Positions 1-50,762 are shown, counted from the first letter of the stretch. The stretch: 64,000 nt of DNA from Escherichia coli (GCF_017348835.2 NZ_CP072315.1); one strand, 5' to 3'. Notes: generated by a model not told the origin, from the letters alone. Program-made: numbers and translations.

Positions 1-60
1 TGGACTCACCGCGCATCGAGCCGGATGTGTCGATAACAAGGTAAACAGGCAGGCGGCGCA

Positions 61-702
61 TCACATGTAATTCCTCAGGTGCGAGACAAACGAATCTGAT
101 TCTGAAGGCTCACCAATTGCCCTGAGTTTCCAGCCTGTAGCCTCGCGTATCAGCTCGGCAAAAACCATGGAGCGCTGGCTGGCGAAGGCGGGTCCGCCAG
201 AAAGATCGAATCGTGCCATTTCAATATTACGGGCATCTACTGCCCGGATGAAGGCATTCTGAACTTTACCAAAGTGCTGCTGGAGCTTTTCACCATTGTA
301 GATCTGAACGATGAACACAATTTTCTCGTACTGAGCGTCAAGGGAATTCAGGCGCACAATAATTTGCTCATCGTCACCATCACCGGCTCCGGTTCGGTTA
401 TCGCCCGTCAGCCAGATATTTCCTGACTTATGGCGAAGGCTGTTGAAAAAGATGATATCGCCATTCACAAGCGTTGGTTTACCATTTTCCACATTGCCGA
501 GATCGGTCACCTTTCCGGCTGAATTACACAGGAAAGCGATCACATCAAGGTCGTATTCTTCTTCTTTTTTACCAAAGATCCCGCCGAGGAAACCTTTCTT
601 TTCCTCATTAATATCCCAACCCAGGCCGATAGTAACGGACGAGAGATCGTATTCATTTTTTTTCAGGCTTACGCCCTGGCCTTTGCTCAGACTGACAGAC
701 AT
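61..702 (-). CDS. terX: TerD-family stress protein (TerX-like)
   Basis: 213-aa ORF with TerD-domain hallmarks (MSVSLSKG N-terminus, GDNRTGxGDGDDE motif) shared with the TerZ/TerD/TerE paralogs in this window; sits beside vWA TerY and TerW. Confidence 0.75.
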   Translation of the reverse strand: MSVSLSKGQGVSLKKNEYDLSSVTIGLGWDINEEKKGFLGGIFGKKEEEYDLDVIAFLCNSAGKVTDLGNVENGKPTLVNGDIIFFNSLRHKSGNIWLTGDNRTGAGDGDDEQIIVRLNSLDAQYEKIVFIVQIYNGEKLQQHFGKVQNAFIRAVDARNIEMARFDLSGGPAFASQRSMVFAELIREATGWKLRAIGEPSESDSFVSHLRNYM

Positions 703-724
703 GACATCCCCTTAATTAATAAAA

Positions 725-1444
725 TTATAAGACCACGTTTACTTCTGGCGGCGGCGGTGGCAGGTCTTCAAGACCGATCACTTCTTTTTTGCTGGACTCC
801 ACTTTCTGACTGCCTACCGAAATGCTCGCACTGACCCATTTAAAGAAAGCTTTAATCGTCGAACTGTCAGCTGTATCGAGCTGAACCACGATTTCAGTGA
901 TTTCTTTGAGGACGCTGGTATCGGCATCATGCCCGGCTGCACATGCCACAACAACGCCGGTTCTGGCCGCTTTAAAGTCATTCAGGCCTTTACGCCAGTC
1001 ATCATTCGGACTTCCATCCGTCATCAGGAATACAAGGGGACGCCAGTCACCTTTAGTGTCAGCCGTCGTTTTCTGTACTTCTTTGGCAATGGAGCTGGCC
1101 GTCAGGGTAAGCGCTTCGCCAAGAGAGGTGGTGCCGCTGGCTGTTAGTGCTGGCATCTGGAAACTCAGGAGGTCTGTCAGGGGGACTGCCTGTCGGGCTG
1201 AAGAATCAAAGGTGATCACTGACACGTAAGCCGTTTCGAGTGCATACGGATCCTGTTTCAGCGTGGTAAGCAGCGTCTGAACGCCATTCTTAACCGCTTC
1301 GATAGGCTCTCCGTGCATAGAGCCGGACGTGTCGAGTAGCAGATATACGGGTAAGCGTCTCAAATGTAATTCCTTCTTAAGAGATCGGAAGAGGAGAGTA
1401 GTTTCAGGAAGAGGCCAGAGTTTGTAGATTTGATAAAACGGCAC
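725..1444 (-). CDS. terY: von Willebrand factor A domain protein (TerY-like)
   Basis: 239-aa ORF with a MIDAS-like motif (LLLDTSGSM ... MTDG); the true start may be a downstream alternative codon. Confidence 0.75.
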   Translation of the reverse strand: MPFYQIYKLWPLPETTLLFRSLKKELHLRRLPVYLLLDTSGSMHGEPIEAVKNGVQTLLTTLKQDPYALETAYVSVITFDSSARQAVPLTDLLSFQMPALTASGTTSLGEALTLTASSIAKEVQKTTADTKGDWRPLVFLMTDGSPNDDWRKGLNDFKAARTGVVVACAAGHDADTSVLKEITEIVVQLDTADSSTIKAFFKWVSASISVGSQKVESSKKEVIGLEDLPPPPPEVNVVL

Positions 1445-1789
1445 GACATCTGTCGGGTGGAGATTAAATACTCAGAAGCGGCATTAAAGAAATAAGTTAA
1501 CCACCATTGAATTACCGACATGTGAATGGCCTCTTATCAGAGAAAAAAATTCAGACCGTACTGGAATATAAATTTCTGAAAAAAACTCCGGCAAAAATAA
1601 ACTTTCTTATGTATGAAAATCATCATACATCACAGATCTGCATGAATGGAGTGTAAATCGCCCAAAGATTGATGTGTAGCACAAGAGGATGTCAAGACAC
1701 CAGGTTTTGTAGGCAGAAAGGCGCTGCTGACATTGCGGGAGGAGAATAGATCAAAACTCCGTCACGCAGATACAGAGGTGAAATATGAC

Positions 1790-1814
1790 AAAACCGGGGT
1801 TTTCACCCCGGTCT
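1790..1814 (-). terminator. Putative intrinsic terminator downstream of terW
   Basis: Hairpin ACCGGGG/CCCCGGT followed by a short T-tract on the minus strand, immediately 3' of the terW stop. Confidence 0.4.
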
Positions 1815-1825
1815 GAGATTTAGCG

Positions 1826-2293
1826 TCAGGACTTTTTAGCGCTGTATTCTTTTATCAGTTCATCAACGGAGTGCAGAGCCAGCTTCTCTACCGCTTCACT
1901 TCGGGTCGAGCCACTCAGCGCAGCCAGACGGTCAATTTTTCTTAAAATCCGCATGCGTAGCGATAATGACACGGCTGTTTTTTTATCCTTATCGAGTACG
2001 ACCTTCCCTGTGGACTCACCGGTTTTCAGTTCAGCATTCTGTGCGAGCGCTTCATTCATCCGGCGAAGGGTCTTTTTATCCAGCTGGCCCGGATTAACGA
2101 GATGGTAGGAATGACCTGCCTTGCTGTATTTGATCTCCGCAGAATATGACTCGCGTAGCTCTTTGAGTGCCCGGGTTAATGTCGGCTCTGAGCATTCCAG
2201 ACTGGTTATAATGTCGGCAGCGGAAACGGGCTTGCCGGTGCCCAGTAAGTTGGCAAGCTTAAAAATCCGGGCCTGTCTGGTATTTAATTGCAT
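1826..2293 (-). CDS. terW: TerW-like regulatory protein
   Basis: 155-aa ORF; size and position between terY and the Ter-linked module match terW of ter islands. Confidence 0.65.
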   Translation of the reverse strand: MQLNTRQARIFKLANLLGTGKPVSAADIITSLECSEPTLTRALKELRESYSAEIKYSKAGHSYHLVNPGQLDKKTLRRMNEALAQNAELKTGESTGKVVLDKDKKTAVSLSLRMRILRKIDRLAALSGSTRSEAVEKLALHSVDELIKEYSAKKS

Positions 2294-2310
2294 CGTAAGA
2301 TTTAGCCTGC

Positions 2311-3519
2311 TTAAAGGGTTAGTGGTTCAATAGGCTGAAAAATGAAGGTACTGCTCATCTTTCGAATAACCGGGTGATCGCCTAACGCTTCAACCGGATC
2401 AATGTGTTCTAAGCCTGCAAAATTTACTGACGACATCTGGCTGCGACTGCATTTGCAGGACAGGATATACTCATCCTCCAGATAGCCGGTCCGCTTACTG
2501 ACCCGTTGCGTAAAGCCTGACACAATCACGTTGTCGAACGGTAGCGTATGTAAAACGATACCGACCAGGCGGAACAAGCAGCCATGGACGTGGCGGGCAT
2601 AGTTTTCGCGTACGGCTTTTTGCGTCATGGCTTTTTCCGTCAGCTCCGTGCCCCGGGCATTAACGCCGTAAATCTTATCAGGGAAATCTTCAATCTCAGC
2701 TAAATCAACATCCAGCAGGACTGCTGATAGCTCCGGCTTTACTTCAAATGCAACAAGCGTTTCACGCGGCCATTCAGTTTCTGCCAGCACACCCGCCAGG
2801 TATGATTCGAAAAACGCGGCGTCTGTCCGGAACTGCTGCCGGGCATCTGCCTGAGCCGTGGCGAGCCGTTTTTCATGTTCTTCAGCCTCAAACTTCCAGT
2901 TTGCATACTGTTCGGCCCAGGCCGTCCGTTGTTGCTGGTACCGGTGCTGTCGAAGGGTATTCTCACGCTCCACATCAATCAGCTCCTGCTGCCACCGGCG
3001 AAGATTTTCGGCGTGGCGCTCAGCTTTAGCTGATTCCGATTCAAACCATTTACCCAGAAAACTAATGCCTTCGCTCTCGGCAGGCTTTTCCGGCAATGCA
3101 AGATAGTCTGGCTTTTCTGGACGCACCGGTGCCGGAACCTGAAAAGGCGACGTTCTGTTATGCAGGTATACTGCTTCCAGCTCTGCCCAGCTGATGCCTG
3201 TTTTAGGATCCGGCGTCAGCTCGTGAATATTACGGATTGCGGTCACCGCTGACATGAGATCAGCGGCTTCCTCCTCAAGCGCCTGTCTGAGCCCCGGGTC
3301 GGTAGCCGTCCGGTTCCCACCTCCGGAACGCGCGGCCCGATCAAGCCGGGTACGGTAACTCAGCCCGGTACCGGGCAAGCCCAGATTGGCATAGGTCCCC
3401 CGGCTTCCAAAAGAAACGGAAGCACCTCTCGGCCCGACACTCAGGCTCGGTGCACCGTTACTCAGGTTGAGGCGAACACCAGGAATAATGTTGATCGACT
3501 TTCTGAATCTGAACCCCAT
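2311..3519 (-). CDS. Ter-associated protein with DUF4236-like N-terminus, function unknown
   Basis: 402-aa ORF co-directional and tightly packed with the module; glycine-rich N-terminal segment (GPRGASVSFGSRGTYANLGLPGTGLSYR). Confidence 0.55.
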   Translation of the reverse strand: MGFRFRKSINIIPGVRLNLSNGAPSLSVGPRGASVSFGSRGTYANLGLPGTGLSYRTRLDRAARSGGGNRTATDPGLRQALEEEAADLMSAVTAIRNIHELTPDPKTGISWAELEAVYLHNRTSPFQVPAPVRPEKPDYLALPEKPAESEGISFLGKWFESESAKAERHAENLRRWQQELIDVERENTLRQHRYQQQRTAWAEQYANWKFEAEEHEKRLATAQADARQQFRTDAAFFESYLAGVLAETEWPRETLVAFEVKPELSAVLLDVDLAEIEDFPDKIYGVNARGTELTEKAMTQKAVRENYARHVHGCLFRLVGIVLHTLPFDNVIVSGFTQRVSKRTGYLEDEYILSCKCSRSQMSSVNFAGLEHIDPVEALGDHPVIRKMSSTFIFQPIEPLTL

Positions 3520-3529
3520 TATGATTTCC

Positions 3530-4489
3530 TTAATGATGCTGGGTCACGGTAAGTAATCTGATTCCATCAGCGCTTTGCTCGTTCTGTAACCCATAAAAAC
3601 GAGCTCTGTCCAGAATGCCAGCCGCCCAGCGGCGATGTGTGGCGGGTTCACACATTGCTCCCTGCGACTTAAACACGGCCTGGGTAGAGTTCAGGATCCG
3701 CAGAGCGTCAGAATGCTCACCCTGAGTGACCATCAGCGCGTTTTGAATGACCTCTATCTGACCCGGGTGAATGGCCGTTTTCCCAACAAGCCCATGTGCC
3801 ATATCAAGAGCCAGCTCTCTGGCCATTACGGCATGATCGTCAATATGCTCACATACGGGCGCGGTCAGGGCAAAATCACGCGGGCCGAAGACCGAAACGA
3901 GCATTTTGATGACGTAGCCCATCGGGCTGTCATACAGCGTCAGGTCCCGGGGACGGCGAAGCGACACAACGTTCATAAGATCGTTGCCGCCGATTCGAAG
4001 CGCAATAATGCGGTCGTGGCAGGGATGTTCCACCAGACGGGTGGCCAGCTCCCGCATCTGAACCACGTCAAAGACGTCTTCTGTTTCCAGCGTTGGCATC
4101 ATGCACAGGTGAGTCCCGCCCATGATATCCCACCATTCAGCTAACGAACTGAGGGTAAATTTCGGCAACACAAACCCGTCGACAGCGGAAAGATCATAAT
4201 GCGCTTTTAACCATCTGCCCATTTCGGCATGCCGGGGGCGAATGAACACCAGAGGCCAGTCATTTTTACCCAGGCTATGCATGCTGTTACTGAGCTCGTG
4301 CAGCAGGTGCTCCAGATTTTTGAGGGCGACGGGGATGTCTGCTTCACTGACAGCATCCTCCAGGCAAATCACCAGAGAGCGCAAACCCGGGATTTTCCCG
4401 TGCAGGACGGCATCAGCAATATCTTCCCGTGTTGCAGGCATGTATAGCGTGGCTCCCAGATTCCAGGGAGAAAGACGATTTTTCATCAA
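3530..4489 (-). CDS. HpcH/HpaI aldolase / citrate-lyase beta-like (TIM-barrel) enzyme
   Basis: 319-aa ORF; start overlaps the upstream gene's stop (ATGA at 4486-4489), indicating translational coupling; fold assignment is from sequence similarity by eye. Confidence 0.6.
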   Translation of the reverse strand: MMKNRLSPWNLGATLYMPATREDIADAVLHGKIPGLRSLVICLEDAVSEADIPVALKNLEHLLHELSNSMHSLGKNDWPLVFIRPRHAEMGRWLKAHYDLSAVDGFVLPKFTLSSLAEWWDIMGGTHLCMMPTLETEDVFDVVQMRELATRLVEHPCHDRIIALRIGGNDLMNVVSLRRPRDLTLYDSPMGYVIKMLVSVFGPRDFALTAPVCEHIDDHAVMARELALDMAHGLVGKTAIHPGQIEVIQNALMVTQGEHSDALRILNSTQAVFKSQGAMCEPATHRRWAAGILDRARFYGLQNEQSADGIRLLTVTQHH

Positions 4490-5565
4490 AGTACCTTCTT
4501 GATAATGGTTACAGCCCGATACTGGCCGAGGGTTCCCCCCATTTCTGTAACAACTATTCCCTTTTCACGAGCAAGCCCTACAAGCAAGGCAACGTCCGAG
4601 TCGTCAATAGAACGCACAAATACATGGTCCGGTACCCGACGTAATACAGCCCGGGTTGCTTCAGCAATACCGGGTTTTATACGATTGACGCTGTCCACTT
4701 TAAATTCATCGGCCAGGAACGCGATAACGTCGCGACTTGTCTGCCATAAGACCCGGGCTGACTCCGTATTCCAGCTCAGGGGAGCGAGGGATGACGGGGT
4801 TAACTTCTTACGGAAATGAGCGACGGTATCGACAAGCATCCGGCTGCATTCGAATTCACTGAGATGCTCGCAAACCATGCACCCGTGTAATCCTTCAGAG
4901 GACCACACTGACCGGGAGATCAGGCCTGACACCGGCGCACCCATGATGCCAAAAGGAATGAGCCAGTCATCATCACTGGCTGCAAGCCAGGAGCAGCCAC
5001 AGGGATCGGCCAGGACAACCAGTCGCGGCTGCTCAGGATAGCCCGGGCGATCTTTCAGTGCGCGTACAAGCTCTCCGGTAATTGCGCCTTTACCTGTCCA
5101 TCCGTCAACAAAGACAATACCGCTGGTACCATGCCGCTCTTCAATGACGTCGAGGGCTGCACCGTCAATTCCACGATCCCGGATAATGCTGATACCGTAA
5201 TGCCATGAGGTTTTCCCCATGTCACGCAGGGCCTGGTGCAGCATAACGCCGAGCGGCACGCCAGCCCTGACAAGACTGGCCAGTACAATGGGCTCATCAC
5301 CAAAGCGTTTGGCCAGAGCAATAGCGAGCTGTGTGACTTCTTTTGCAAGTCTCTCTGCGCCCCGATCCAGCGCCCGGTGAAACAAATCAAGATGCCATTG
5401 TGTTGGCGCTGGCTCCTGACTGAGCATGTCCGAATAATGTTTCTTCCCTGACTGAATCAGCTCTTCTTTTTGCTCAACCGGCGTCATCTCAATGACAACC
5501 GGCTTTAGCAGAAATTCCACGTCACCGGGCTGGTATGAGCCGGTAAATGTGTCATGTGGCTGCAT
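4486..5565 (-). CDS. Phosphoribosyltransferase-like protein (divergent)
   Basis: ATG at 5565 preceded by a GGAGAA ribosome-binding site and placed 1 nt after the HAD stop; degenerate PRTase-like motif IVFVDGWTGKGAITG. Confidence 0.55.
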   Translation of the reverse strand: MQPHDTFTGSYQPGDVEFLLKPVVIEMTPVEQKEELIQSGKKHYSDMLSQEPAPTQWHLDLFHRALDRGAERLAKEVTQLAIALAKRFGDEPIVLASLVRAGVPLGVMLHQALRDMGKTSWHYGISIIRDRGIDGAALDVIEERHGTSGIVFVDGWTGKGAITGELVRALKDRPGYPEQPRLVVLADPCGCSWLAASDDDWLIPFGIMGAPVSGLISRSVWSSEGLHGCMVCEHLSEFECSRMLVDTVAHFRKKLTPSSLAPLSWNTESARVLWQTSRDVIAFLADEFKVDSVNRIKPGIAEATRAVLRRVPDHVFVRSIDDSDVALLVGLAREKGIVVTEMGGTLGQYRAVTIIKKVL

Positions 5566-5566
5566 T

Positions 5567-6340
5567 TTAATTTTCTCCAAAAATTCGCTGTGAAATGGCA
5601 TCTGCAAACTGACTCTGACGCGGGATGCCAAACCAGCTGCACAGTTTCATAAAACGATGATCGCTCAGGCTGTCGCCCAGGCCAATTACGGGGAAGACTC
5701 CGCGTTCAGCCCGAAGTTTTTCAAGCAGCCATCTGACTGCCAGCCCTTTCTCAACCGGGGTGGGAAGCCAGGCCACGTTATTACTGTTGCGGTGGATGTA
5801 GAAGCCCTCGGTCGGAAACACCGTTTCTATCTCATCTGCAATGGCATTAAGCTCGTCAAGGCGGGTGCTGTCGCGGTGCTTCATCACCATATAAACCGCC
5901 GTTTCACCGTATTCGAAGTTCAGCCTTGCCCAGGCATTGATCCCTTTTGCGTCCATCATTTCAGTGATCAGACGCTGCATCGATGTCAGCTTTTCCTGGT
6001 AGGGAGCCAGCTGGCCAAGCATATGGGCCTTCCACTCCTCGTCGGGTTTGCCTTCAGGCGTGAGAATGACGGCCCCGTGCGTGGTGATTGCCCAGGAGTG
6101 GAAAGGGATCCGGACGCGGCTGATTTCTTCAGTTCCCCGGGCGGTAACAGGTATGAGTTCAGCCTGCTCCAGGAGCCAGTCCACCAACATGGACTGTTCT
6201 TCCGTCATAAAGCTTCGTGGATTCAGGGTGCGATCAACGGCACCGGTACGGAATGGCTCCAGGGCCAGCTCGTCCACCATTTTACGACGGGTCTGAAAGA
6301 GCGTGTCGTCAAGGTCGCTCAGAACAACGGGTTTATTCAT
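5567..6340 (-). CDS. HAD-superfamily hydrolase
   Basis: Starts MNKPVVLSDLDDTLF (HAD motif I DxDxT); ATG at 6340 overlaps the PRTase gene's stop by 8 nt; the longer track ORF 5567..6676 is an upstream extension. Confidence 0.7.
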   Translation of the reverse strand: MNKPVVLSDLDDTLFQTRRKMVDELALEPFRTGAVDRTLNPRSFMTEEQSMLVDWLLEQAELIPVTARGTEEISRVRIPFHSWAITTHGAVILTPEGKPDEEWKAHMLGQLAPYQEKLTSMQRLITEMMDAKGINAWARLNFEYGETAVYMVMKHRDSTRLDELNAIADEIETVFPTEGFYIHRNSNNVAWLPTPVEKGLAVRWLLEKLRAERGVFPVIGLGDSLSDHRFMKLCSWFGIPRQSQFADAISQRIFGEN

Positions 6341-7481
6341 AGGTAACAATCTCCACGACGGGCGCAACCTCAGCCAGGGCTTTAAGAAGCTGCGTGTCAA
6401 TACTTTCTGCGGGTGTCTCAGTACACACAAGAATACGGTCAAACTGCTGGTGGGCGACGTTATAGACAAAATTGGGGATGCCCAGCCCGTAGTTATCCGT
6501 AAAGGAAATGGCGGACTCAATGGCATAACCAACGGCGATAGGGGAGCGGGTGGTCGAACCATAAAGTGCCTGTGCTCCGGCAGCTTCGAGCCGTTCAGCA
6601 AGCAGGAACGGCTCCCAGACGAATTCCCCGGTCCCGAGAACCAGAATACGTTCCCCCTTGCGGACGGAGACCTCATGGCCGAGATCGGCCGCAGGTGCGA
6701 GCATCCCCAGTCGACCCCAGGACTGTTTTCCCAGGATGTCCCATTCTCCGCGTGAAGTTACGTTGACTTTCGGCATGTCCGGGACAGGTGCATCAGGTAA
6801 TGGGGTCCATCCCCACTGACCGCTTACAAGCGAAACCGAAGTGACGGGCAAGGATGTGCGCTCCGACAGGGCGTTGCTACTCCAGTCGGTAAGCGTAACG
6901 GCGATAACCTGTTCAATATGTTGAAGCTTGCCGGTATTACGCAGGGCAGAAAGCAGGTTAATAAAGGTATTACCGGTGGTTGCCTCGTCATCAATCAAAA
7001 CCAGCGTTCGTGCGTTGGTAACACGACGTCTTTTCTCTTCATCATCTGGCAGATAGATCAGATGATCGGTGGCGTGGCTGTGTTCTTCCTTGAACTCGCA
7101 AAGTAACGTGCCATCAACCGGGTGACGGGTAGAGGTCAGATAGACAGATTCACGATGCTGGTGGCGCACTTCATCAAACACACCGGCCCCTAGCCCAACG
7201 GCGGTTTCAGCCATACCGATAAAAAGTACGGGCCCTGTCAGCGTTGCGGGGAACTGGCTGGCAAGCTGTCTGTAGGCCTGCCGCATGACTGAGGGTGGCA
7301 CGGGAATGTGCCTGCCGAGTACTTTGCTGACAAACAGAAAGGCGCGTTTCGGGTTACGTCTTTCAGCGATATCAAACAGGTCATCGAGCGAAACATCACC
7401 CTGGTCGCGGGTTACCTGTATCGTACCGCATGAGAGGGTACGGCGATAAATCATATCTTCGAGGGTATCAGACATAAACAC
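6333..7481 (-). CDS. Phosphoribosyltransferase-domain protein
   Basis: 382-aa ORF with PRTase signature VLIDDEATTGNT; GTG start at 7481 or ATG at 7475. Confidence 0.7.
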   Translation of the reverse strand: MFMSDTLEDMIYRRTLSCGTIQVTRDQGDVSLDDLFDIAERRNPKRAFLFVSKVLGRHIPVPPSVMRQAYRQLASQFPATLTGPVLFIGMAETAVGLGAGVFDEVRHQHRESVYLTSTRHPVDGTLLCEFKEEHSHATDHLIYLPDDEEKRRRVTNARTLVLIDDEATTGNTFINLLSALRNTGKLQHIEQVIAVTLTDWSSNALSERTSLPVTSVSLVSGQWGWTPLPDAPVPDMPKVNVTSRGEWDILGKQSWGRLGMLAPAADLGHEVSVRKGERILVLGTGEFVWEPFLLAERLEAAGAQALYGSTTRSPIAVGYAIESAISFTDNYGLGIPNFVYNVAHQQFDRILVCTETPAESIDTQLLKALAEVAPVVEIVTYE

Positions 7482-7484
7482 GCC

Positions 7485-8543
7485 TTAATTCAGATGGTTA
7501 GAGAGTGATTCCGGGTAAACGATGACATCTGTGATGGATCTCACTGCAACCGGAGAAAAGGTATTTCTGGCGCTCTGGATCACCGCATCTTCAGACATCA
7601 GACCGAGCTTAAAGGCAGCAAACAACCCGGGAAGGTTCACCCCGCTGTGAAGGGTATAACCCACCCCGCCTGACGGACGCATGTTGGTTTCAAGCAGCAC
7701 CGGGTTGCCATTCACATCGTTTCGCGTCTGAACATTCACCAGCCCGTCGGCCTTCATAACCCGGGCGCAGTCACAAGCCAGTTCCCAGGCGCTTCCTTCG
7801 TTTACCAGATACTGGATAGCCCCTTCCTTACGGCGTCCCACGGCTGCGAGTATTTCGCCCTTATCCGCGAGGATATCGACGGAAAATTCCGGGCCTGGCA
7901 GGTACGGCATCAAAACAAGGGGTTTAAACGACTCAGAAGCCGATGCTGCTGCAATATACTGTTGCGGACTGACCAGACGATGTTCGGGATGATTAAAGAC
8001 GGCCATGGGCGAAGCACTGTCATCAAAGCGCCAGAATCCCATGCCATAGATACCCGTCACCGGCTTCACGCATACCGGGCTGTCCGAGAACGGCGGGGCC
8101 GCGAGGTGCGTCTTTAATTCTGCCAGCGTATTCACCCGCCAGGACGGTACGACCGGGAGCCCGTTTTGCTCCATAAACTGAGCAAAAGTAACTTTTTCGT
8201 CAGCCAGAGTTAACCAGTCGACGCCTGTTGCACCGGTAGTAAGGGTGGCTCCGGTCGATTCAATGGCTGAACGGTGTTCTTCAAACCACTGGCTGTTACG
8301 GCCAGTATGAATATGGTGGATGCCGTAGGTCTGAATGGTTTCCTGAATAAACTGAAGACGTTTTTGAGGATCTTCAGGTTCAGTCAAAGAATAATCGGCA
8401 ACGGAAAGAATTTCATGTCTTTCGTTACGGTGGGAGGCAAATACGGTAATAGCAAAATTATTTTTTTGTGCAAATGATTTTACCCCCTGAATAATATCTC
8501 GCTGGGAGGACAAACCTTCCATAAACCAAATTTTCTTGTTCAT
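7485..8543 (-). CDS. ATP-grasp family enzyme
   Basis: 352-aa ORF, first gene of the minus-strand module; ATP-grasp-like fold judged from sequence. Confidence 0.65.
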   Translation of the reverse strand: MNKKIWFMEGLSSQRDIIQGVKSFAQKNNFAITVFASHRNERHEILSVADYSLTEPEDPQKRLQFIQETIQTYGIHHIHTGRNSQWFEEHRSAIESTGATLTTGATGVDWLTLADEKVTFAQFMEQNGLPVVPSWRVNTLAELKTHLAAPPFSDSPVCVKPVTGIYGMGFWRFDDSASPMAVFNHPEHRLVSPQQYIAAASASESFKPLVLMPYLPGPEFSVDILADKGEILAAVGRRKEGAIQYLVNEGSAWELACDCARVMKADGLVNVQTRNDVNGNPVLLETNMRPSGGVGYTLHSGVNLPGLFAAFKLGLMSEDAVIQSARNTFSPVAVRSITDVIVYPESLSNHLN

Positions 8544-8865
8544 TTTTTTTAATTATCCGGAACGCCATGCAAATTTATGATTGAGAAGTGAGTCTATGAG
8601 TGTCTACGCTACATGTCAATCATAATATGATTAATAACTTCAGTGGTTATGGAGTGCGTCAGTGTTTTTTTAGTGCCTTATAACGTATTGATATTTAAAT
8701 TAAAAATAGAAAAATGAACACCATGAAAAGGATTTATTTTTGTGTTTTTGAAGAAAACTACCAAAATTTCCCTTGTCAGAGAACTTCATCATGATATGAT
8801 TTTCTTCGTCAGTTACTAAATATACCTTTGATTGTCTCGGTCATTACCATTTTAAGGAATAAAAC
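8544..8865. promoter_or_regulatory. AT-rich divergent intergenic region between the Ter-linked module and terZ
   Basis: 322-bp AT-rich non-coding stretch separating divergently oriented operons; GGAA ribosome-binding site upstream of terZ. Confidence 0.5.
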
Positions 8866-9447
8866 ATGGTTTCATTAAGTAAGAACCAGACGGTATCACT
8901 CAGCAAAGAATCTTCAGCATTAAGCCAGCTTCAATTCGGTCTCGGTTGGGATCCGGTTAAGAAAAAAGGTCTTCTTGGAGGATTGTTTGGAGGCAACGAC
9001 TCAATCGATCTCGATGCTGGCTGCGTATTAATGGACAGCACCGGTAAAACAATTGACACCATCTGGTTCCGCAAACTGGAATCCACCTGCGGCGCTGTTG
9101 TGCACAGTGGCGATAACCTGACCGGTGAGGGTGACGGTGACGATGAGGTGATTAAGGTCAACCTCTCCCGACTGCCTGCAAACGTTGAATACCTGGCGTT
9201 TACGGTAAACAGCTTCCGTGGTCAGTCGTTCAATGACGTCGAAAACGCGTTCTGCCGCGTTGTCGATCAAACCGGCAAAGAGCTGGCTCGCTACAAGCTG
9301 ACTGAGCAGGGCTCACATACCGGGATCGTTATTTCTTCGCTGCGCCGTAATAACGGCAACTGGGACTTTACCGCCCTTGGCCATGCCTGTCGCGGCCGCA
9401 CAATTGACGATATGCACTCCGATATCGTTTCAGCGGTTATTCGCTAA
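8866..9447 (+). CDS. terZ: Tellurium resistance protein TerZ (TerD family)
   Basis: 193-aa ORF with TerD domain; first gene of a terZABCDE-order cluster. Confidence 0.85.
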   Translation: MVSLSKNQTVSLSKESSALSQLQFGLGWDPVKKKGLLGGLFGGNDSIDLDAGCVLMDSTGKTIDTIWFRKLESTCGAVVHSGDNLTGEGDGDDEVIKVNLSRLPANVEYLAFTVNSFRGQSFNDVENAFCRVVDQTGKELARYKLTEQGSHTGIVISSLRRNNGNWDFTALGHACRGRTIDDMHSDIVSAVIR

Positions 9448-10604
9448 TGAACCTGACGCCGGGGGGCAATGCCCCCGTTCCAGCCCAGGAGTTGCGGGTC
9501 CGGATCACCTCGGGCGGCCAGGTGGATGCTTCGGCGTTTCGCCTGTATGCCGACGGGAAGGTGCAGGGTGATGCGGACATGGTGTTTTATGGTCAGCCAC
9601 GTAACGATGATGGTACCGTCAGCCTGGTCAGTGAAGGCCAGTACTCAACCTTTACTGTCGCGCTCAACCGGCTGAAACCTGATGTCCAGAAAATTGCGTT
9701 CACCGTGACCTGTGACGGTGGGCAGACGGTGTCCGGTCTTCGTAATCTTTCCATCGACGTGGAGCAAGGGGCTACCGGCCTGGTTAGCGGCAGTGTCGAA
9801 CTGAGCGGCCGTCAGGAAGCAGCCTTAATTCTGGGTGAATTTTACCGTCGTAATAATGACTGGAAATTCCGCTTCGTTGCGCAGGGGTTCAACGGTGGAC
9901 TTAAACCGCTGGCAGAGCATTTCGGCGTAAATATTGCCGACGAACCGGCTCCCGCAGCCCCGACTCCTCCGGTTGTAACCCCTCCGCCAGTTGAGACAAA
10001 AATCAGCCTGAGCAAGGTATCGCTGACAAAAGAGAAGCCTGCAATCAGCCTGACCAAACGGGATAACTTCGGTGAAATCCGGATCAACCTGAACTGGCAC
10101 CGGGGCAGCGGCAAATCAGGCTTTGCAGGCATGTTCGGCTCCAAAGGAATCGACCTGGATCTGGGGGCCTTTGTTGAGCTTCAGGACGGGTATAAATCGG
10201 TCATTCAGGCGCTCGGTAATGCATTCGGTAATTATCGCGATGAACCGTATGTTCAGCTCAAGGGCGATGACCGGACGGGTGATGTATCAGACGGCGAGTG
10301 GCTGCATATCAATGGACGTGAATGGAAGCATATCCGCGAAGTGCTGATTTACGCCTTTATTTATGAAGGTGTTCCCAGCTGGGACAAGACTGATGGTGTG
10401 GTCACCATTCATGTGCCGGATCAACCGCCCATTGAGACCCGCCTGACCGAAGGTGAAAACCGTCGCACATTGTGCGCCATTGCCAGACTCGTAAACGAAA
10501 ACGGCGCAATTAAAGTCGAGCGAATTAACCAGTACTTCAAAGGCCAGGACGAAATGGACCGGGCATTTGGCTGGGGATTTCGCTGGAGCGCCGGTTCTAA
10601 ATAA
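9447..10604 (+). CDS. terA: Tellurium resistance protein TerA
   Basis: 385-aa ORF; TAATG stop/start overlap with terZ. Confidence 0.85.
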   Translation: MNLTPGGNAPVPAQELRVRITSGGQVDASAFRLYADGKVQGDADMVFYGQPRNDDGTVSLVSEGQYSTFTVALNRLKPDVQKIAFTVTCDGGQTVSGLRNLSIDVEQGATGLVSGSVELSGRQEAALILGEFYRRNNDWKFRFVAQGFNGGLKPLAEHFGVNIADEPAPAAPTPPVVTPPPVETKISLSKVSLTKEKPAISLTKRDNFGEIRINLNWHRGSGKSGFAGMFGSKGIDLDLGAFVELQDGYKSVIQALGNAFGNYRDEPYVQLKGDDRTGDVSDGEWLHINGREWKHIREVLIYAFIYEGVPSWDKTDGVVTIHVPDQPPIETRLTEGENRRTLCAIARLVNENGAIKVERINQYFKGQDEMDRAFGWGFRWSAGSK

Positions 10605-10626
10605 CACAGCAACAAAGGAAACAGGT

Positions 10627-11082
10627 ATGAGCTTTTTCGACAAGGTAAAAGGTGCCATTAACTCTGGCCGGGACGAACTGACCCGCCAGGTTGGTCGTTT
10701 CAAAAACAAAAAATTTATGCACGGCACCGTTGCTGTATGTGCCCGTATTGCCGTATCGAGTGACGGCGTGAGTTCGGAAGAAAAGCAGAAAATGATGGGC
10801 TTTCTTCGCTCTTCAGAAGAGCTGAAGGTCTTCGATACCAATGAGGTGATCGAGTTCTTCAATAAACTGGTTTCAAGCTTCGATTTCGATGTTGAAATCG
10901 GCAAGGGCGAAACCATGAAATACATCCTGGCGCTGAAAGATCAGCCTGAGGCCGCTCAGCTGGCCTTACGTGTTGGTATTGCCGTTGCGAAAAGTGACGG
11001 TAACTTCGATCAGGACGAGAAACTGGCCTCCCGCGAGATCGCTATCGCGTTGGGCTTCGACCCGGCTGAATTTGGCCTCTGA
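10627..11082 (+). CDS. terB: Tellurium resistance protein TerB
   Basis: ATG at 10627 with AAGGAAACAGG ribosome-binding site gives 151 aa (MSFFDKVKG...); the track ORF from 10567 is an upstream extension. Confidence 0.85.
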   Translation: MSFFDKVKGAINSGRDELTRQVGRFKNKKFMHGTVAVCARIAVSSDGVSSEEKQKMMGFLRSSEELKVFDTNEVIEFFNKLVSSFDFDVEIGKGETMKYILALKDQPEAAQLALRVGIAVAKSDGNFDQDEKLASREIAIALGFDPAEFGL

Positions 11083-11104
11083 TCCACATCCCTAAGGGTA
11101 AAAT

Positions 11105-12145
11105 ATGGTTTCCACACACATCGGCTTCCCGACTGAAACGGTCATTGTTTTCATTGCGCTTTCAGTCGGTGCCATCTTTATTGACCTGTTTATGCACCGT
11201 GATGACAAGCCCATTTCCCTGAAGAGTGCGGCGCTCTGGTCCGTATTCTGGGTTGTGGTTGCGATGGCATTTGCCGGTTTCCTCTACATCCACCACGGTG
11301 CTGAGGTTGCCAGCCTGTTTGTAACGGGTTATGCGCTGGAGAAAGTGCTGTCGGTCGACAACCTGTTTGTCATGATGGCCATCTTCTCCTGGTTCGCCGT
11401 TCCTGATCGTTACCGCCACCGTGTTCTCTACTGGGGGATCATTGGTGCCATCGTCTTCAGGGGCATCTTTGTCGCCATCGGTACGAGCCTGCTGAGTCTG
11501 GGGCCGTATGTTGAAGTTGTCTTCGCTATCATCGTCGCCTGGACGGCGGTCATGATGCTTAAAAGCGGTGATGACGATGATGAAATTGAGGATTATTCCC
11601 AGCATCTGGCTTACCGCATGGTTAAACGCTTCTTCCCTATCTGGCCGAAGCTCAGAGGTCATGCTTTCCTGCTTAACCAGAAGGAAGTGGATGCCGAACT
11701 GGCGAAACCAGAAAACAGCGATGTCACCATTGGCCGTGGTAAAAAGGCGGCGCTGTATGCGACCCCTCTGTTCCTGTGTGTGGCCGTGGTTGAACTCTCG
11801 GATGTTATGTTTGCGTTTGACTCGGTACCGGCAATCATTGCCGTCAGTCGTGAACCGCTTATCGTCTATAGTGCCATGATGTTTGCTATCCTGGGCCTGC
11901 GTACTCTGTACTTTGTCCTTGAAGCACTGAAACAGTACCTGGTTCATCTGGAGAAGGCCGTTATCGTGCTGCTGTTCTTCATCGCGGCAAAACTGGGCCT
12001 GAATGCGACCGATCACATTTGGCATCATGGTTACAGCATCGCGGCGACAACCAGCCTGTATGTTGTACTGGGTGTTTTGGCGCTGGGCATTCTCGCAAGC
12101 GTCATATTCCCGGGCAAACCTGAATCTGAGGAAAAGGGGAGCTGA
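11105..12145 (+). CDS. terC: Integral membrane protein TerC
   Basis: 346-aa ORF with multiple hydrophobic helices. Confidence 0.85.
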   Translation: MVSTHIGFPTETVIVFIALSVGAIFIDLFMHRDDKPISLKSAALWSVFWVVVAMAFAGFLYIHHGAEVASLFVTGYALEKVLSVDNLFVMMAIFSWFAVPDRYRHRVLYWGIIGAIVFRGIFVAIGTSLLSLGPYVEVVFAIIVAWTAVMMLKSGDDDDEIEDYSQHLAYRMVKRFFPIWPKLRGHAFLLNQKEVDAELAKPENSDVTIGRGKKAALYATPLFLCVAVVELSDVMFAFDSVPAIIAVSREPLIVYSAMMFAILGLRTLYFVLEALKQYLVHLEKAVIVLLFFIAAKLGLNATDHIWHHGYSIAATTSLYVVLGVLALGILASVIFPGKPESEEKGS

Positions 12146-12193
12146 TCCCCTGAAGTGTTAACCTGAACAATTACTAATCGAAGAGGTTATTTT

Positions 12194-12772
12194 ATGAGTG
12201 TTTCTCTTTCCAAAGGCGGGAACGTCTCCCTGAGTAAAGCAGCTCCGTCAATGAAAAACGTCCTGGTGGGCCTTGGCTGGGATGCGCGTTCAACAGACGG
12301 TCAGGACTTTGACCTGGATGCTTCAGCATTCCTGCTGGCCGCAAATGGCAAAGTGCGCGGCGATTCAGATTTCATCTTCTATAACAACCTGACGTCATCT
12401 GACGGTTCCGTAACCCATACCGGTGATAACCGTACCGGTGAAGGTGATGGTGATGATGAATCGCTGAAAATTAAACTGGACGCCGTCCCGTCTGATGTTG
12501 ACAAGATCATCTTCGTTGTCACTATCCATGATGCTCAGGCTCGTCGCCAGAGCTTTGGTCAGGTATCCGGTGCGTTTATTCGCCTGGTCAATGACGATAA
12601 CCAGACTGAAGTCGCTCGCTACGATCTGACCGAAGATGCGTCCACTGAGACTGCCATGCTGTTCGGCGAGCTGTATCGCCACAATGGTGAGTGGAAATTC
12701 CGCGCAGTGGGCCAGGGTTATGCTGGTGGTCTGGCATCTGTATGTGCTCAGTACGGCATTAACGCGTCCTGA
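12194..12772 (+). CDS. terD: Tellurium resistance protein TerD
   Basis: 192-aa [16 protein letters not shown] motif. Confidence 0.9.
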
Positions 12773-12839
12773 TCGAAAAGTAACTTTTCACCCGGGGCTG
12801 TTAATGCAGCCCTCATTCAACTGTTTGCAGGAGCTAAAA

Positions 12840-13415
12840 ATGGCAGTTTCTCTCGTAAAAGGCGGCAACGTATCTCTGACCAAAGAAGCACCAACCATGA
12901 ATATCGCTATGGTTGGCCTCGGCTGGGATGCCCGTGTAACTGACGGTCAGGCTTTTGACCTGGACGCTTCCGTGTTCGCAGTAGGCGAAGACGGTAAAGT
13001 GCTGTCAGATGCGCATTTCATTTTCTTCAATAACAAAACCAGCCCTGATGGCGCGGTAGAGCACCAGGGCGACAACCGTACCGGTGAAGGCGACGGTGAC
13101 GATGAGCAGGTCAAAATCGATCTGACCAAAGTCTCAGCAGATATCAAAAAACTGGTGTTTGCCGTTACCATCTATGATGCAGAAGCGCGTAAACAAAACT
13201 TCGGCATGGTGAGCAACAGCTTCATGCGCGTTTACAACAACGACAACGGCACGGAAATTGCCCGTTTCGATCTGTCTGAAGATGCCTCAACCGAAACCGC
13301 TATGGTCTTCGGTGAACTGTATCGTCATGGCGCTGAGTGGAAGTTTAAAGCTGTCGGTCAGGGCTTTGCCGGTGGCCTGGCGGCTCTTGCCTCCCAGCAC
13401 GGCGTTAACATCTAA
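12840..13415 (+). CDS. terE: Tellurium resistance protein TerE
   Basis: ATG at 12840 after a GGAG ribosome-binding site gives 191 aa (MAVSLVKGG...), a close paralog of TerD. Confidence 0.85.
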
Positions 13416-13432
13416 AACAACGCTGAATCATA

Positions 13433-13457
13433 CCCCGGCAATGCCGGGGTTTTTTTT
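13433..13457 (+). terminator. Rho-independent terminator after terE
   Basis: Hairpin CCCCGGC-AAT-GCCGGGG followed by eight T residues. Confidence 0.75.
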
Positions 13458-13843
13458 GGTTGCGATCCGCTTTCAGGAGGGAGTAGTAGAAAGGGGACTG
13501 GAAATTTCAGAAAGCAGGTCATGTTAATTCAGACCTGAGCCTTTTAAAGGCAGGAAACGGATTTATCTCTGGTTGCTGGTTAAAGCCGGTATTCCGTGCC
13601 TTTTATCAACAGAATGCCCCTCTGATATATGTTACTTTTGCGGTTTATGAAGGAACGGGATCTGGAACATAAGATACCCGGTCAATCAAAATTCCAGTTC
13701 AACAGGTATAGAAACTTCAGCGTGATGAAATATGGTGTCACACCATATATACGCCTCACCAGAAATCCAGCGTCCTGAACTAAGCCTGGGGAACATATAT
13801 AAGCGCTGCGCTTTAAAAATAATCAAAAATCAGGAGAGTTAAT

Positions 13844-15085
13844 GTGAATCTACAATCCGGACAAAACATACCGCTTCAGCAATCTGCGATCAGGCTGAAT
13901 CTTCAGTACCCTGCCAAATCCGGCTTTAAAGGCGAACCCGATACCTGCCTCTTCCTGCTTAATGCTCAGGGAAAGGTAACCGGCGATTCTGACTTTATCT
14001 TTTATAATAATCTGTCTTCTCCTGAAGGGGCAGTAAAGCTCGTTACCGGTTCTCAGCAGTCCAGCATTGAGATAGCACTGGATCGTGTTCCGGCGAACGT
14101 CAGTAAGATTGCGATCACCGTTGTCATTGATGGTGAAGATACTATCAGTGGGCTCAGTTTATTGAGCATTCAGGCTCCTGGTATCGCTGATTTTCAGGCT
14201 GAGACTCAGGGCCGCAGTGAGAAAGCAATCATCCTGGGTGAAGTATATCGGCACAATGGCGCCTGGAAGCTTCGTGCGCTCGGGCAGGGTTTCAACGGTG
14301 GTCTTGAGCCTCTGGCCATTAGCTTTGGCGTTGATGTCGCACAGCCAGCTCCGCAGCCAGCAAAGCCTGCTCGTATCAGTCTGGAAAAGAAACTTGAAAC
14401 CAGATCTCCGCGCCTCGTAAGCCTCGCTAAAAAAGCCTCGGTCAGTCTCACTAAAAATAAACTGGACACCCTTGAGGCAGCGGTTGCATTTGTACTTGAC
14501 GCATCCGGCTCAATGAGTGGCCAGTTCAGTAAGGGCAACGTTCAGTCTGTGCTGGACCGCATCGCCGTTCTTGCCGCCCAGTTCGACGACGACGGTGAAA
14601 TGGATGTCTGGGGATTTGGAGAGAAGCACAAGAAGTATCCAAACGTCACACTGGACAACCTGGACACATATATTCAGTCCATTCGCGGGTCTGGAAAGCG
14701 TTCAGCCTGGGAGAACCTGCCGGGACTTGGTGGGACAAACAATGAGCCCCCTGTGATGGAAGAAATTGTCGACTACTTTAAGGACTCGAAAATCCCGGTA
14801 TATGTTGTATTTATTACCGATGGCGGGATCAGCAAGACCCGGGCGATTAAAGATGCAATCCGGCGTTCTGCCAACTACCCCATCTTCTGGAAGTTTGTCG
14901 GCCTGGGTGGTTCAAGCTACGGTATCCTCAAAAATCTGGATGACTTTACTGACCGCCGGGTTGATAACACCCACTTCTTTGCCATGGATGATTTCGGTTC
15001 GATCAGCGATGAAAAGTTATATGATAATTTACTGGAAGAATTCAGACCGTGGATCGATGAAACAAAAAGGTTAGGCATCCTGTAA
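13844..15085 (+). CDS. terF: TerF-like protein (TerD domain fused to vWA domain)
   Basis: 413-aa ORF with GTG start after a CAGGAGAG ribosome-binding site; TerD-like N-half and vWA-like C-half (VLDASGSM). Confidence 0.75.
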
Positions 15086-15647
15086 TACGCACAGTTTTCG
15101 CATGGTTAAAGGAGCTCTACAGCAGCTTAATACTGTAGAGCCTTTGTTCACTGGAAATCGTACAGGGAGGAGCATATGGACCGCATCAAGTACCTGAAAT
15201 GGATAGCTGAAGAATCACCAACTGATGATGAAATCGACAACTACGATAGTATCATTAGTCGGGGCGCAGAAAGGGCCGAGAAGGTTCAGTTGTCTTTAAG
15301 ACGTTAATATACGGGAGTTTAAATGTTCGCAGAAATCAAAGATAATTATTCGTTAGGTGGATAAAGAAAGGTTGCCATTACCAGCTTTCGACGAGTCGAA
15401 AATAAAAACCTTATTTATAGTGACAGGGAGTATGAGCTGACGCTTGCCAATGGAACAATAATTAAAAATGTACTTAGAAAAGAAGAGTGGGAACTGTTAG
15501 AAAGCAATTCAATTAAGGTTATATTATAACGAAAATATATTTACAGTTTTGGATAGGTTTCAAACGAGTCCGGACATTTGTACCTGAAGTATCTGACATT
15601 ACAGTTAAGTGACGATTATGCCAGCACGTCTGTTGCTGGCAGCTTAG

Positions 15648-15929
15648 CTATCGGTCTAAAAGCTGATCCATTAATAATTCTTCGTAAAGCCCAGAGGTAT
15701 CGGGCTTTATTACAATATCCGTTATTTCGAAGCGTTCAAGTACAAATTGCAGATATTCCGGAGTAACGTAGTAGGGATCAGGTTCAGCCAGATTAGTATA
15801 GAGTGGGTCTTCTGCTGCATTAATGTCATAATCAATGCACATATGAAACCACTGCAAAGGTGGATCCCAGCCTAACATCACCTGAACAATTCCCTGATTG
15901 CTTTTCACCTCATACCAGTGCTGGCTCAT
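15648..15929 (-). CDS. Hypothetical protein
   Basis: 93-aa ORF, no recognisable motif. Confidence 0.4.
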   Translation of the reverse strand: MSQHWYEVKSNQGIVQVMLGWDPPLQWFHMCIDYDINAAEDPLYTNLAEPDPYYVTPEYLQFVLERFEITDIVIKPDTSGLYEELLMDQLLDR

Positions 15930-15978
15930 ACTTAGTCCTTAAGAAAATTTGTCATCGGAAAATAACACGAAGCCTGCA

Positions 15979-16170
15979 TCATCGAGGCGCATAACCTTCT
16001 TCCCTTAACGCCTGTTGTAATTTATCAACTGCGCTTTTCATTACCCAGGCTTCTTCGTCACTCACAGCACAACCACGTAGATCGCTCCAGCTCAGACGTT
16101 TAACAAATTGAGCAAGGGCCATAGTTTCGTTCTCATCAAGCCGCAAACTCAGTGTCTCAATACCTTCCAC
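15979..16170 (-). CDS. Hypothetical small protein
   Basis: 63-aa ORF. Confidence 0.35.
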   Translation of the reverse strand: MEGIETLSLRLDENETMALAQFVKRLSWSDLRGCAVSDEEAWVMKSAVDKLQQALREEGYAPR

Positions 16171-16261
16171 AATCTAACCTCCCTTATAATGAAAAATGGC
16201 GCTTTACTTCTGACCAGATGCCGAAGCCTTGAATGCAGCCGGAACTGTCGTTGTTTCTACT

Positions 16262-18265: not shown

Positions 18266-18269
18266 CGAT

Positions 18270-43299: not shown

Positions 43300-43367
43300 C
43301 CGCTAAGCAGCGGCACATTTTGCGTTTTGAGCGCAGCGAAGCAAAATGTGTCCGATGGCTTGGATGG

Positions 43368-50738: not shown

Positions 50739-50762
50739 AAGAACCTCAAGGGTTGGCTGTTT

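Follow-up and report, generated by a model that had tools for sequence, protein, structure and literature searches.

Few accessory loci are as widespread on enterobacterial plasmids and pathogenicity islands as the ter cluster, which has been linked to resistance to tellurite, phages and colicins and, in Klebsiella, also to infection and to fitness in the gut. A Ter-linked biosynthetic module was described by Anantharaman, Iyer and Aravind (Mol Biosyst 2012). As summarised in papers that cite this work, the module has two or five enzymes, of which a phosphoribosyltransferase (PRTase) and a HAD hydrolase are always present; its product is probably a pyrimidine-derived ribonucleoside, which TerB possibly connects to TerD and TerC. 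A chemical precedent is found in the CriT/CrpP pair, where transfer of ribofuranosyl-5-phosphate, dependent on phosphoribosyl pyrophosphate (PRPP), is followed by dephosphorylation by a HAD enzyme. Here, we analysed six co-directional genes at positions 2311-8543 of a 64,000-nucleotide stretch of DNA from Escherichia coli (GCF_017348835.2, NZ_CP072315.1), which we call the window and which is part of an IncHI2 (R478-like) multiresistance plasmid.

The region is the Ter-linked module of Anantharaman et al., already known as a predicted pathway, because several of the Pfam families matched bear Ter-context names. It contains PRTase_2 with a TRSP domain, a neighbouring HAD, StiP with PELOTA_1, a TIM-barrel C-C lyase and an ATP-grasp enzyme, in linkage to Ter genes. 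A preliminary description of the window had recognised this enzyme set and a predicted nucleoside-like metabolite, and later papers cite the 2012 paper in this sense. It had also stated that no product or phenotype was known, which holds for the product, since we found no paper defining one in the literature searched, but not for phenotype and biochemistry, since a counterpart of the HAD enzyme has been crystallised and assayed, and a phenotype of StiP has been published. On balance, we lean slightly towards a pathway in which PRPP-dependent phosphoribosyl transfer and dephosphorylation would make a ribosylated small molecule for the Ter complex, with TerW controlling both promoters of the locus. 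For some 30 years it has been unclear how the cluster works, and the enzyme operon is the most tractable entry to its mechanism, since the Ter proteins would gain a ligand once a metabolite were defined. Our re-examination reveals nothing new in kind; it defines a core (PRTase_2, HAD, StiP and lyase), proposes candidate operators for TerW, offers the concrete precedent of ribofuranosyl-5-phosphate transfer followed by HAD dephosphorylation, and draws attention to two problematic annotations, namely, StiP as a "cysteine protease" and the HAD as a "trehalose phosphatase". The genes concerned are the following.

7485-8543, minus strand: ATP-grasp ligase (ATPgrasp_Ter), 352 amino acids (aa), first gene of the operon and an optional module member
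6333-7481, minus strand: type I PRTase (PRTase_2) with a C-terminal TRSP domain, 380-382 aa, the start in the PGAP annotation being the ATG at 7475
5567-6340, minus strand: HAD-IIB phosphatase, 257 aa
4486-5565, minus strand: StiP (formerly PRTase_1) with PELOTA_1 (L7Ae-like), 359 aa
3530-4489 (or from 4486), minus strand: CitE/HpcH-like TIM-barrel C-C lyase (C-C_Bond_Lyase), 318-319 aa
2311-3519, minus strand: DUF4236-domain protein, 402 aa
1826-2293, minus strand: terW, small DNA-binding protein, 155 aa, last gene of the apparent transcription unit
8866-15085, plus strand: terZ-terA-terB-terC-terD-terE-terF, divergent from the enzyme operon, presumed functional partners

Conserved core of the module

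The lyase family comprises 857 clusters at 50% identity (E <= 0.001) in a global library, and a genome scan with a 16-sequence lyase alignment (one genome per species) returned at least 566 relatives. We mapped the window's own module and Ter proteins, as tblastn queries, onto the best 80 of these at least 566 loci, one per species, in which the lyase is 50-86% identical. These 80 loci come mostly from Enterobacterales, and also from Shewanella, Photobacterium, Pseudomonas, Thiothrix, a Neisseriaceae genome, and Desulfovibrio and Sericytochromatia metagenome-assembled genomes (MAGs). The presence counts are as follows.

StiP: 80 of 80 loci
Lyase: 80 of 80 loci
PRTase_2: 79 of 80 loci
HAD: 75 of 80 loci
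ATP-grasp: 54 of 80 loci
terW, 3' of the lyase gene: 59 of 80 loci
DUF4236: 7 of 80 loci
TerB and TerC within 10 kb: 71 of 80 loci
Any Ter gene within 10 kb: 77 of 80 loci

The order PRTase_2-HAD-StiP-lyase is kept in 74 of the 80 species, with HAD and StiP adjacent in 75, and metagenomic loci with 34-54% identity show this order as well. Seven of nine distant lyase loci lie beside TerD/TerB/TerC genes and have StiP-PELOTA adjacent or fused, and at these Ter-linked loci PRTase_2-TRSP and HAD are present where the contig extends far enough. Moreover, three fusion genes were found in metagenomic or MAG loci, each next to TerD/TerB genes: StiP-PELOTA_1::C-C lyase (683 aa; L006, 1231-3282), C-C lyase::PRTase_2-TRSP (874 aa; L007, 190-2814) and C-C lyase::HAD (543 aa; L008, 10001-11632). 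As these three independent fusions join enzymes to one another, they argue that the enzymes act in one pathway or complex. A shorter form is carried by the jumbo Acinetobacter phage vB_AbaM_ME3, which has PRTase_2-HAD-StiP in the same order beside genes for TerD-like, vWA-domain and membrane proteins, and neither a lyase nor an ATP-grasp gene with this trio, in agreement with published work. Thus, judging from these comparisons, the conserved core consists of three or four enzymes (PRTase_2, HAD, StiP and the lyase), not of six genes. The six-gene unit of the preliminary description therefore has to be redrawn, since the DUF4236 gene is sporadic (7/80 species), the ATP-grasp gene is optional (54/80), and terW lies in the same apparent transcription unit. 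We also observed a branch of the lyase family, 31% identical, that has no Ter context (L009, 9122-10876; L010, 2092-3846); its partner is a 291-aa protein without annotation, an OprD-family porin gene comes next, and its function may differ.

The DUF4236 match of the last of the six proteins (2.4e-21) covers residues 3-56 only, in a protein whose beta-rich DUF4236 region at the N-terminus is followed by a long helix and, at the C-terminus, an alpha/beta domain; full-length homologues amounted to 655 matches. Where the gene is present among the 80 loci, it always lies in the interval between the lyase gene and terW. A role as sixth biosynthetic enzyme was rejected, as the gene is found in so few of the species and elsewhere occurs without the enzymes. 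The gene is, judging from its distribution, a lineage-specific passenger, apparently co-transcribed here and outside the conserved module. In PHROGs, the N-terminal DUF4236 domain alone matches phage families of unknown function, while nothing useful was returned for the module enzymes. Among the homologues elsewhere, one in Psychromonas ingrahamii (L092, 7052-10977; 41% identical) lies amid TerD-family genes with none of the enzymes nearby, which suggests that the protein relates to the TerD proteins rather than to the pathway, one in Truepera occurs with no Ter genes, and one on a mobile island stands beside integrase, nuclease and radical-SAM genes.

Sequence and structural features of the enzymes

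The family assignments that had been made for all the enzymes hold in profile searches (Pfam and NCBIfam), which do not turn the genes into unrelated housekeeping enzymes, and the motifs LSDLDDTLF and VLIDDEATTGNT are both present as reported. Conservation of the catalytic motifs was assessed across 34-83 orthologues per enzyme. PRTase_2 matches PF15609 (1.6e-63) and its TRSP domain PF12500 (5.1e-23); the canonical PRPP loop, D162-D163-E164...T167-G168-x-T170, is invariant, and the nearest solved sequences, weakly matched (E 0.03-0.7), are orotate PRTase and uridine monophosphate synthase. The lyase matches PF15617 (C-C_Bond_Lyase, 9.4e-114) and, weakly, RipC, CitE and citrate lyase 3qll. Seven of its residues (E43, D44, R83, E134, D169, K236 and E280) are invariant in 74 diverse homologues, and by analogy the first five may correspond to the acidic metal ligands and the substrate-binding arginine of CitE/HpcH enzymes. 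The ATP-grasp enzyme matches PF15632 (ATPgrasp_Ter, 2.7e-37) and has K117, K160, E219, D223, E285, N287 and R289 invariant; its profile matches the large subunit of carbamoyl-phosphate synthetase and 2pn1 at about 5e-10. Single-sequence searches of the PDB found no close solved relative of the ATP-grasp enzyme, PRTase_2, StiP or the lyase, and profile searches with the first three gave distant matches only.

StiP matches PF11202, the former PRTase_1 (4.9e-89), and its C-terminal domain PF15608 (PELOTA_1, 1.4e-24). In RefSeq the gene is labelled "cysteine protease StiP family", and the Pfam name likewise reads "cysteine protease". However, the AlphaFold2 model, with a predicted local distance difference test score (pLDDT) of 93.9, consists of a type I PRTase domain and an L7Ae/Pelota-like domain, and its significant structural neighbours are all type I PRTases, PRPP-dependent ribofuranosyltransferases or L7Ae/Pelota domains. 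In the Foldseek search, the significant matches are nearly all hypoxanthine-guanine PRTases, plus PyrR, and no protease fold occurs in either list of structural neighbours. R100-A101-G102, D154-G155-W156 and G158-K159-G160 are invariant (56-83 sequences), and T157 is conserved in at least 97%. From their spacing and from the motifs of uracil PRTases, we infer that these segments form the pyrophosphate loop and the PRPP (5-phosphate) loop, respectively. The latter has D154 followed by G155 and so lacks the vicinal acidic pair (DD or DE), a feature that it shares with CriT and with uracil PRTases; by this analogy, the missing pair argues for divergence, not for inactivity. The five cysteines, in turn, are conserved incompletely among 83 orthologues (C189 in 83%, C191 in 64%, C229 in 87%, C232 in 88% and C240 in 80%), none of them being invariant, and their replacements include A, G, F, Y, V and others. 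The modelled fold and the incomplete cysteine conservation argue against a cysteine protease, a reading that was therefore rejected, and the earlier call of a "divergent PRTase-like" protein proved right. The C-terminal profile matches the K-turn-binding region of L7Ae/eL8/Snu13, including an N-E-x-T-K/R-like motif, at E about 0.007, and N294, K297, G299, E302, T304, R305, R309 and R310 of the PELOTA domain are invariant. StiP of Acinetobacter baylyi is reported to be needed for tellurite resistance and normal morphology (Reichert et al., Can J Microbiol 2013, as cited in later work). The "cysteine protease" label conflicts with the predicted fold and the conservation pattern, while the A. baylyi phenotype may well be real.

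The HAD is seen weakly by Pfam and gives an NCBIfam HAD-IIB/MPGP match of 3.6e-9; it has all the HAD motifs, with D9-x-D11-x-T13, T66, K198 and G222-D223-S224..D227 conserved. A profile of 47 orthologues matches the "trehalose phosphatase" PDB entries 6D3V, 6D3W and 6CJ0 over the full length (E 7.5e-85), and the window HAD alone matches them at E 2.7e-43 with 37% identity over 252 residues. The crystallised sequence maps to Pseudomonas aeruginosa megaplasmids at 94-99.6% identity, where its gene is placed between PRTase and StiP of a Ter-linked module; the order is ATP-grasp, peptidase, PRTase, HAD, StiP, lyase, second HAD, TerD, TerD, TerB, TerC, TerD, TerD. In one such plasmid, pWTJH12-KPC (5592-17057), the whole module and terZABCDE lie on one strand, and the trypsin-like peptidase gene in the ATP-grasp/PRTase interval and the second HAD hydrolase gene after the lyase gene are additions. 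The P. aeruginosa enzyme has been employed in phosphatase assays as the "extrachromosomal TPP of P. aeruginosa", TPP standing for trehalose-6-phosphate phosphatase. Mg-dependent hydrolysis of trehalose-6-phosphate was reportedly observed by Cross et al. (FASEB J 2018). Members of this HAD family are thus active phosphatases, able to act on a phosphorylated glycoside. Biochemistry for one enzyme of the module thus exists, which was interpreted outside the Ter context and leaves the product undefined. No trehalose-phosphate synthase is annotated in the ter locus or in the P. aeruginosa locus, the whole genomes not having been searched for otsA; the constant neighbours of the HAD gene are PRTase genes.

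Organization of the apparent transcription unit

As had been described, the six genes lie between terW, terY and terX at the left and the divergent terZABCDE-terF at the right. The features that delimit them are these.

8591-8619, minus strand: promoter-like site (TTGACA-17-TAGACT) preceding the start codon of the ATP-grasp gene by about 48 nt
1791-1814, minus strand: intrinsic-terminator-like hairpin with a 10-bp stem (6 G-C pairs), followed by a T-rich tail
61-1444, minus strand: terX (TerD family) and terY (vWA domain), downstream of the terminator

The gap between the ATP-grasp and PRTase_2 genes is 3 nt, or 9 nt with PGAP's ATG, and those between HAD and StiP, between lyase and DUF4236, and from the DUF4236 stop to the terW start are 1, 10 and 17 nt, respectively. 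The 8-nt overlap of the PRTase_2 stop and the HAD start at 6333-6340, ATGAATAA, is present as described, but the ATGA overlap reported at 4486-4489 is absent: the minus strand reads TTGATG from 4489 to 4484, so that StiP and the lyase gene overlap either by 4 nt (TTGA, with a TTG start) or by 1 nt (TGATG, with PGAP's ATG). The terminator-like hairpin begins 12 nt past the terW stop and likely marks the 3' end of the operon. The promoter-like site has 10 of 12 consensus matches and is the joint best of nine sites reported in 1-9000; as the number of such sites in 1-9000 is not above the shuffled expectation, the case for this promoter is its position, within the AT-rich divergent intergenic region (GC 0.42). 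Given the short gaps and overlaps, the promoter-like site before the ATP-grasp gene and the hairpin after terW, the seven genes from ATP-grasp to terW appear to form one transcription unit, with a sigma-70-like promoter near 8600 and a terminator at about 1800. terX and terY probably belong to a separate unit, since they lie downstream of this terminator and beyond a gap of 381 nt, which precedes terY and has a promoter-like site of its own (1594-1565).

TerW and its candidate operators

The terW gene is identical to its AMRFinder reference (100% identity). TerW shows helix-turn-helix (HTH)-type matches at its N-terminus and a short C-terminal match to the aCcr1-type family, and the C-terminal segment may be a ribbon-helix-helix. 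The divergent intergenic region, 322 bp in length, contains two copies of the 13-bp palindrome ATCAT(A/G)ATATGAT.

8619-8631: operator-like palindrome 1, ATCATA-A-TATGAT, abutting the -35 hexamer of the promoter of the biosynthetic operon
8788-8800: operator-like palindrome 2, ATCATG-A-TATGAT, overlapping the -10 hexamer TATGAT of a promoter-like site of terZ (8773-8800)

These two are the only matches in the 64 kb of the window, where 0.14 would be expected. When the corresponding region of the other loci was scanned for ATCAT-N3-ATGAT with at most one mismatch, the motif was found in 55 of the 57 loci with terW, at least two copies being present in 51, and in one of the 19 loci without it; the background rate is 0.019 per 460 bp. 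Because the palindromes track with the presence of terW, TerW is likely the cognate regulator of these paired candidate operators, and it probably controls both promoters. A permissive Rfam scan of 1-16000 detected no riboswitch or leader RNA for the operon. The same region contains, between terE and terF (13385-13457, plus strand), a match to the Burkholderia anti-hemB small RNA, which at 24.8 bits against a gathering threshold of 49.5 (E 0.038) is most likely due to chance.

Proposed pathway and alternative explanations

In the pathway towards which we lean, PRTase_2 would couple PRPP to a small aglycone, giving a 5'-phosphoribosyl compound, and StiP would be a second, divergent and probably active PRPP-dependent transferase that adds or handles a further phosphoribosyl unit, its acceptor possibly being a hydroxyl, as with ribofuranosyltransferases of the CriT type. 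The L7Ae-like domain of StiP might hold a ribose-phosphate or an RNA-like ligand. The HAD-IIB enzyme would then remove the 5-phosphate, so that a phosphatase acts after a transferase, just as in OtsA/OtsB, sucrose-phosphate synthase/phosphatase and CriT/CrpP. The aglycone's carbon skeleton may be made or trimmed by the Mg-dependent C-C lyase, and the ATP-grasp enzyme, where present, may add an amide-linked group. The ribosylated product would act on the TerB/TerD/TerC membrane complex encoded divergently, and TerW would control both promoters via the paired ATCAT-N3-ATGAT palindromes.

Several points weigh against this pathway. The sole measured activity of a module enzyme is on trehalose-6-phosphate, not on a ribosyl compound; the PELOTA/L7Ae-like domain points equally to an RNA partner and to a small molecule; and detection of a metabolite was not found in the literature searched. 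The association between terW and the palindromes is confounded by phylogeny, as the loci without terW are the more distant ones. Moreover, terZ-F alone gives E. coli K-12 tellurite resistance, so that the phenotype after which the locus is named does not depend on the enzyme operon; a requirement of the module for tellurite resistance was therefore rejected. The A. baylyi StiP was reported as a protease (Reichert 2013, as cited in later work). Finally, the aglycone and the roles of the lyase, TRSP and the ATP-grasp enzyme in the scheme are guesses.

A more specific possibility, which we regard as doubtful, is that StiP and the HAD form a cytoplasmic pair similar to CriT/CrpP, with an O-ribofuranosylated product: either a disaccharide-type nucleoside arising from two PRPP transfers, in which PRTase_2 would form the N-glycoside and StiP would add a second ribose-5-phosphate to a hydroxyl, or ribosylated RNA, which the L7Ae-like domain would hold. 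If true, the trehalose-6-phosphate phosphatase activity would be a side activity of a glycoside-phosphate phosphatase, and the product would be the long-sought ligand coupling TerB/TerD/TerC to phage and stress resistance, its level being set by TerW via the paired palindromes. In a rival model, PELOTA_1 would recruit StiP to a structured RNA, of which a ribose or base would be phosphoribosylated and dephosphorylated, without any free metabolite. The match of the StiP C-terminal profile to the K-turn-binding region and the invariant PELOTA residues speak for it, and Rit1, which is PRPP-dependent and acts on initiator tRNA, offers a comparison. However, no conserved RNA gene or Rfam family was found in or beside the module, the CitE-like lyase fusions and the ATP-grasp enzyme suit small-molecule chemistry better, and the HAD belongs to the sugar-phosphate type with small substrates, its in vitro substrate being the phosphate of a disaccharide, so we judge this model to be unlikely.

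The phage inhibition conferred by the Ter cluster might instead suggest an abortive-infection or stress effector, in which firing of the Ter sensors would cause the PRTases to use up nucleobases or PRPP, or to produce a nucleotide analogue that is toxic, so that growth of the cell or phage halts, as with the ShosT and retron PRTase effectors. Defence effectors built on PRTases and acting by disturbance of purine metabolism are known from the literature, and in PADLOC PRTase_2 shows weak similarity (E about 1e-3) to PRTase effectors of type III-A retrons. Depletion, however, would need no phosphatase, C-C lyase, ATP-grasp enzyme and second PRTase kept in a fixed order and fused; the promoter-like site of the operon is an ordinary one, a regulator is linked to it, and nothing in its arrangement resembles a toxin-antitoxin pair; and no module protein matches a PADLOC defence model above noise, as the PADLOC 2.0 search yielded marginal PRTase_III-A matches (E about 1e-3) and a WYL-named regulator model over the N-terminal HTH of TerW only. 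An effector role thus seems quite unlikely to us. Ribofuranosylation of an envelope glycan, whereby StiP and the HAD would place ribofuranose on a surface polysaccharide or lipopolysaccharide and so alter phage or colicin receptors, would accord with the documented CriT-plus-HAD mechanism and with the phage and colicin resistance among the Ter phenotypes. We consider it very improbable, as Foldseek ranks purine PRTases first for StiP, as glycan ribofuranose systems have nothing that corresponds to the L7Ae-like domain or to the lyase and ATP-grasp partners, and as the annotated loci list no gene for a glycan polymerase, a flippase, an ABC exporter or a lipid carrier, the 80 loci not having been searched for them. 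The annotations could also be taken at face value, in which case a trehalose-6-phosphate phosphatase, a cysteine protease, an enzyme resembling citrate lyase and the others would be neighbours without any functional relation. The PDB depositors' name and the use of the HAD homologue as a TPP in assays agree with this, as does the "cysteine protease StiP" of RefSeq and Pfam, a name that follows Reichert 2013. Such a set of unrelated genes is hardly credible, given that 74 of 80 species keep order and linkage, which persist down to 34% identity, that three fusion architectures join the enzymes, that nothing protease-like occurs among the structural neighbours of the StiP model, whose five cysteines are only 64-88% conserved, and that the ter locus has no annotated trehalose-phosphate synthase.

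Source plasmid and surrounding sequence

The segment 2311-8543 is 100% identical to many E. coli and Salmonella plasmids, the IncHI2 plasmids so matched numbering in the hundreds; in all it matches 1,347 plasmid records, 675 of them at >=99% identity. Positions 1-15878 are 99.98% identical to pF2_18C_HI2, which is otherwise collinear with the window to about 20.2 kb; at 15875-15878 the window lacks an IS3-family insertion of about 1.26 kb that pF2_18C_HI2 has downstream of terF. Just left of window position 1, identical plasmids (L001, 1825-6751) carry genes for a TerY-C metal-binding protein, a PP2C phosphatase, a kinase-like protein and a further vWA protein. We take the TerY-C/PP2C/kinase-like trio to be the TerY-P arrangement, which is listed among the anti-phage systems. 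Correspondence with the annotated plasmid places genes for an HTH regulator and a toxin of the HipA family (17970-19595, with hipA at 18270-19595) a few kb beyond the end of terF.

The remainder, 20200-64000, includes a mosaic multiresistance region with a Tn3-family transposase fragment. It contains a Dcm-type DNA cytosine methylase (27843-29312), four copies of IS26 (about 36737-37557, 39079-39899, 46799-47621 and 50763-51582), an aadA cassette (42342-43316), a class 1 integron integrase (45369-46382), an open reading frame for a 730-aa PAS/methyl-accepting chemotaxis-like protein that overlaps one of the IS26 copies (49161-51353), an ISCR transposase (53331-54824), floR (55956-57170) and aph(6)-Id/aph(3'')-Ib (60199-61976).

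Comparison with known systems

In HAD-IIB synthase-phosphatase pairs, glycosyl transfer gives a phosphorylated glycoside, which the HAD then dephosphorylates. The phosphatases of OtsA/OtsB, sucrose-phosphate synthase/phosphatase and mannosyl-3-phosphoglycerate synthase/phosphatase are the nearest named families of the window HAD, but pairs of the OtsA/OtsB type use GT-B glycosyltransferases acting on nucleoside-diphosphate sugars, whereas the transferases here are PRPP-using PRTases. The P. aeruginosa TPP (6D3V, 6D3W, 6CJ0) belongs to the same HAD-IIB family and occupies the same module position as the window HAD; it differs in having been characterised outside the Ter context, with trehalose-6-phosphate as the substrate tested. 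The A. baylyi StiP is likewise a member of the Pfam family of the window StiP, PF11202, which is named after it, but has been reported as a protease, whereas the window protein has a predicted PRTase fold, invariant PRPP-binding motifs and no invariant cysteine.

CriT/CrpP of Haemophilus influenzae Bcs3 and the Thermobacillus composti ribofuranosyltransferase-phosphatase (PDB 8A0C, 7SHG) similarly have a PRTase-like transferase adjoining a HAD phosphatase. However, enzymes of this type act on glycan hydroxyls in capsule or O-antigen machines and share about 11% sequence identity, whereas the module here has a canonical second PRTase, a C-C lyase, an ATP-grasp enzyme and an L7Ae-like domain, and no glycan machinery is listed among its annotated genes. 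With ShosT and the retron type III-A PRTase, it shares the type I PRTase fold, a context of phage resistance and a weak PADLOC match; those proteins are single infection-triggered effectors, whereas the window carries a multi-enzyme operon with its own regulator. From the module of Anantharaman et al. the locus differs in nothing of kind: it has matches to each of the five enzyme families, associated with TerD/TerB/TerC as described, and both the five-enzyme and the reduced forms are seen among its relatives. What distinguishes this plasmid lineage is the DUF4236 gene inserted between the lyase gene and terW, with terW closing the operon.

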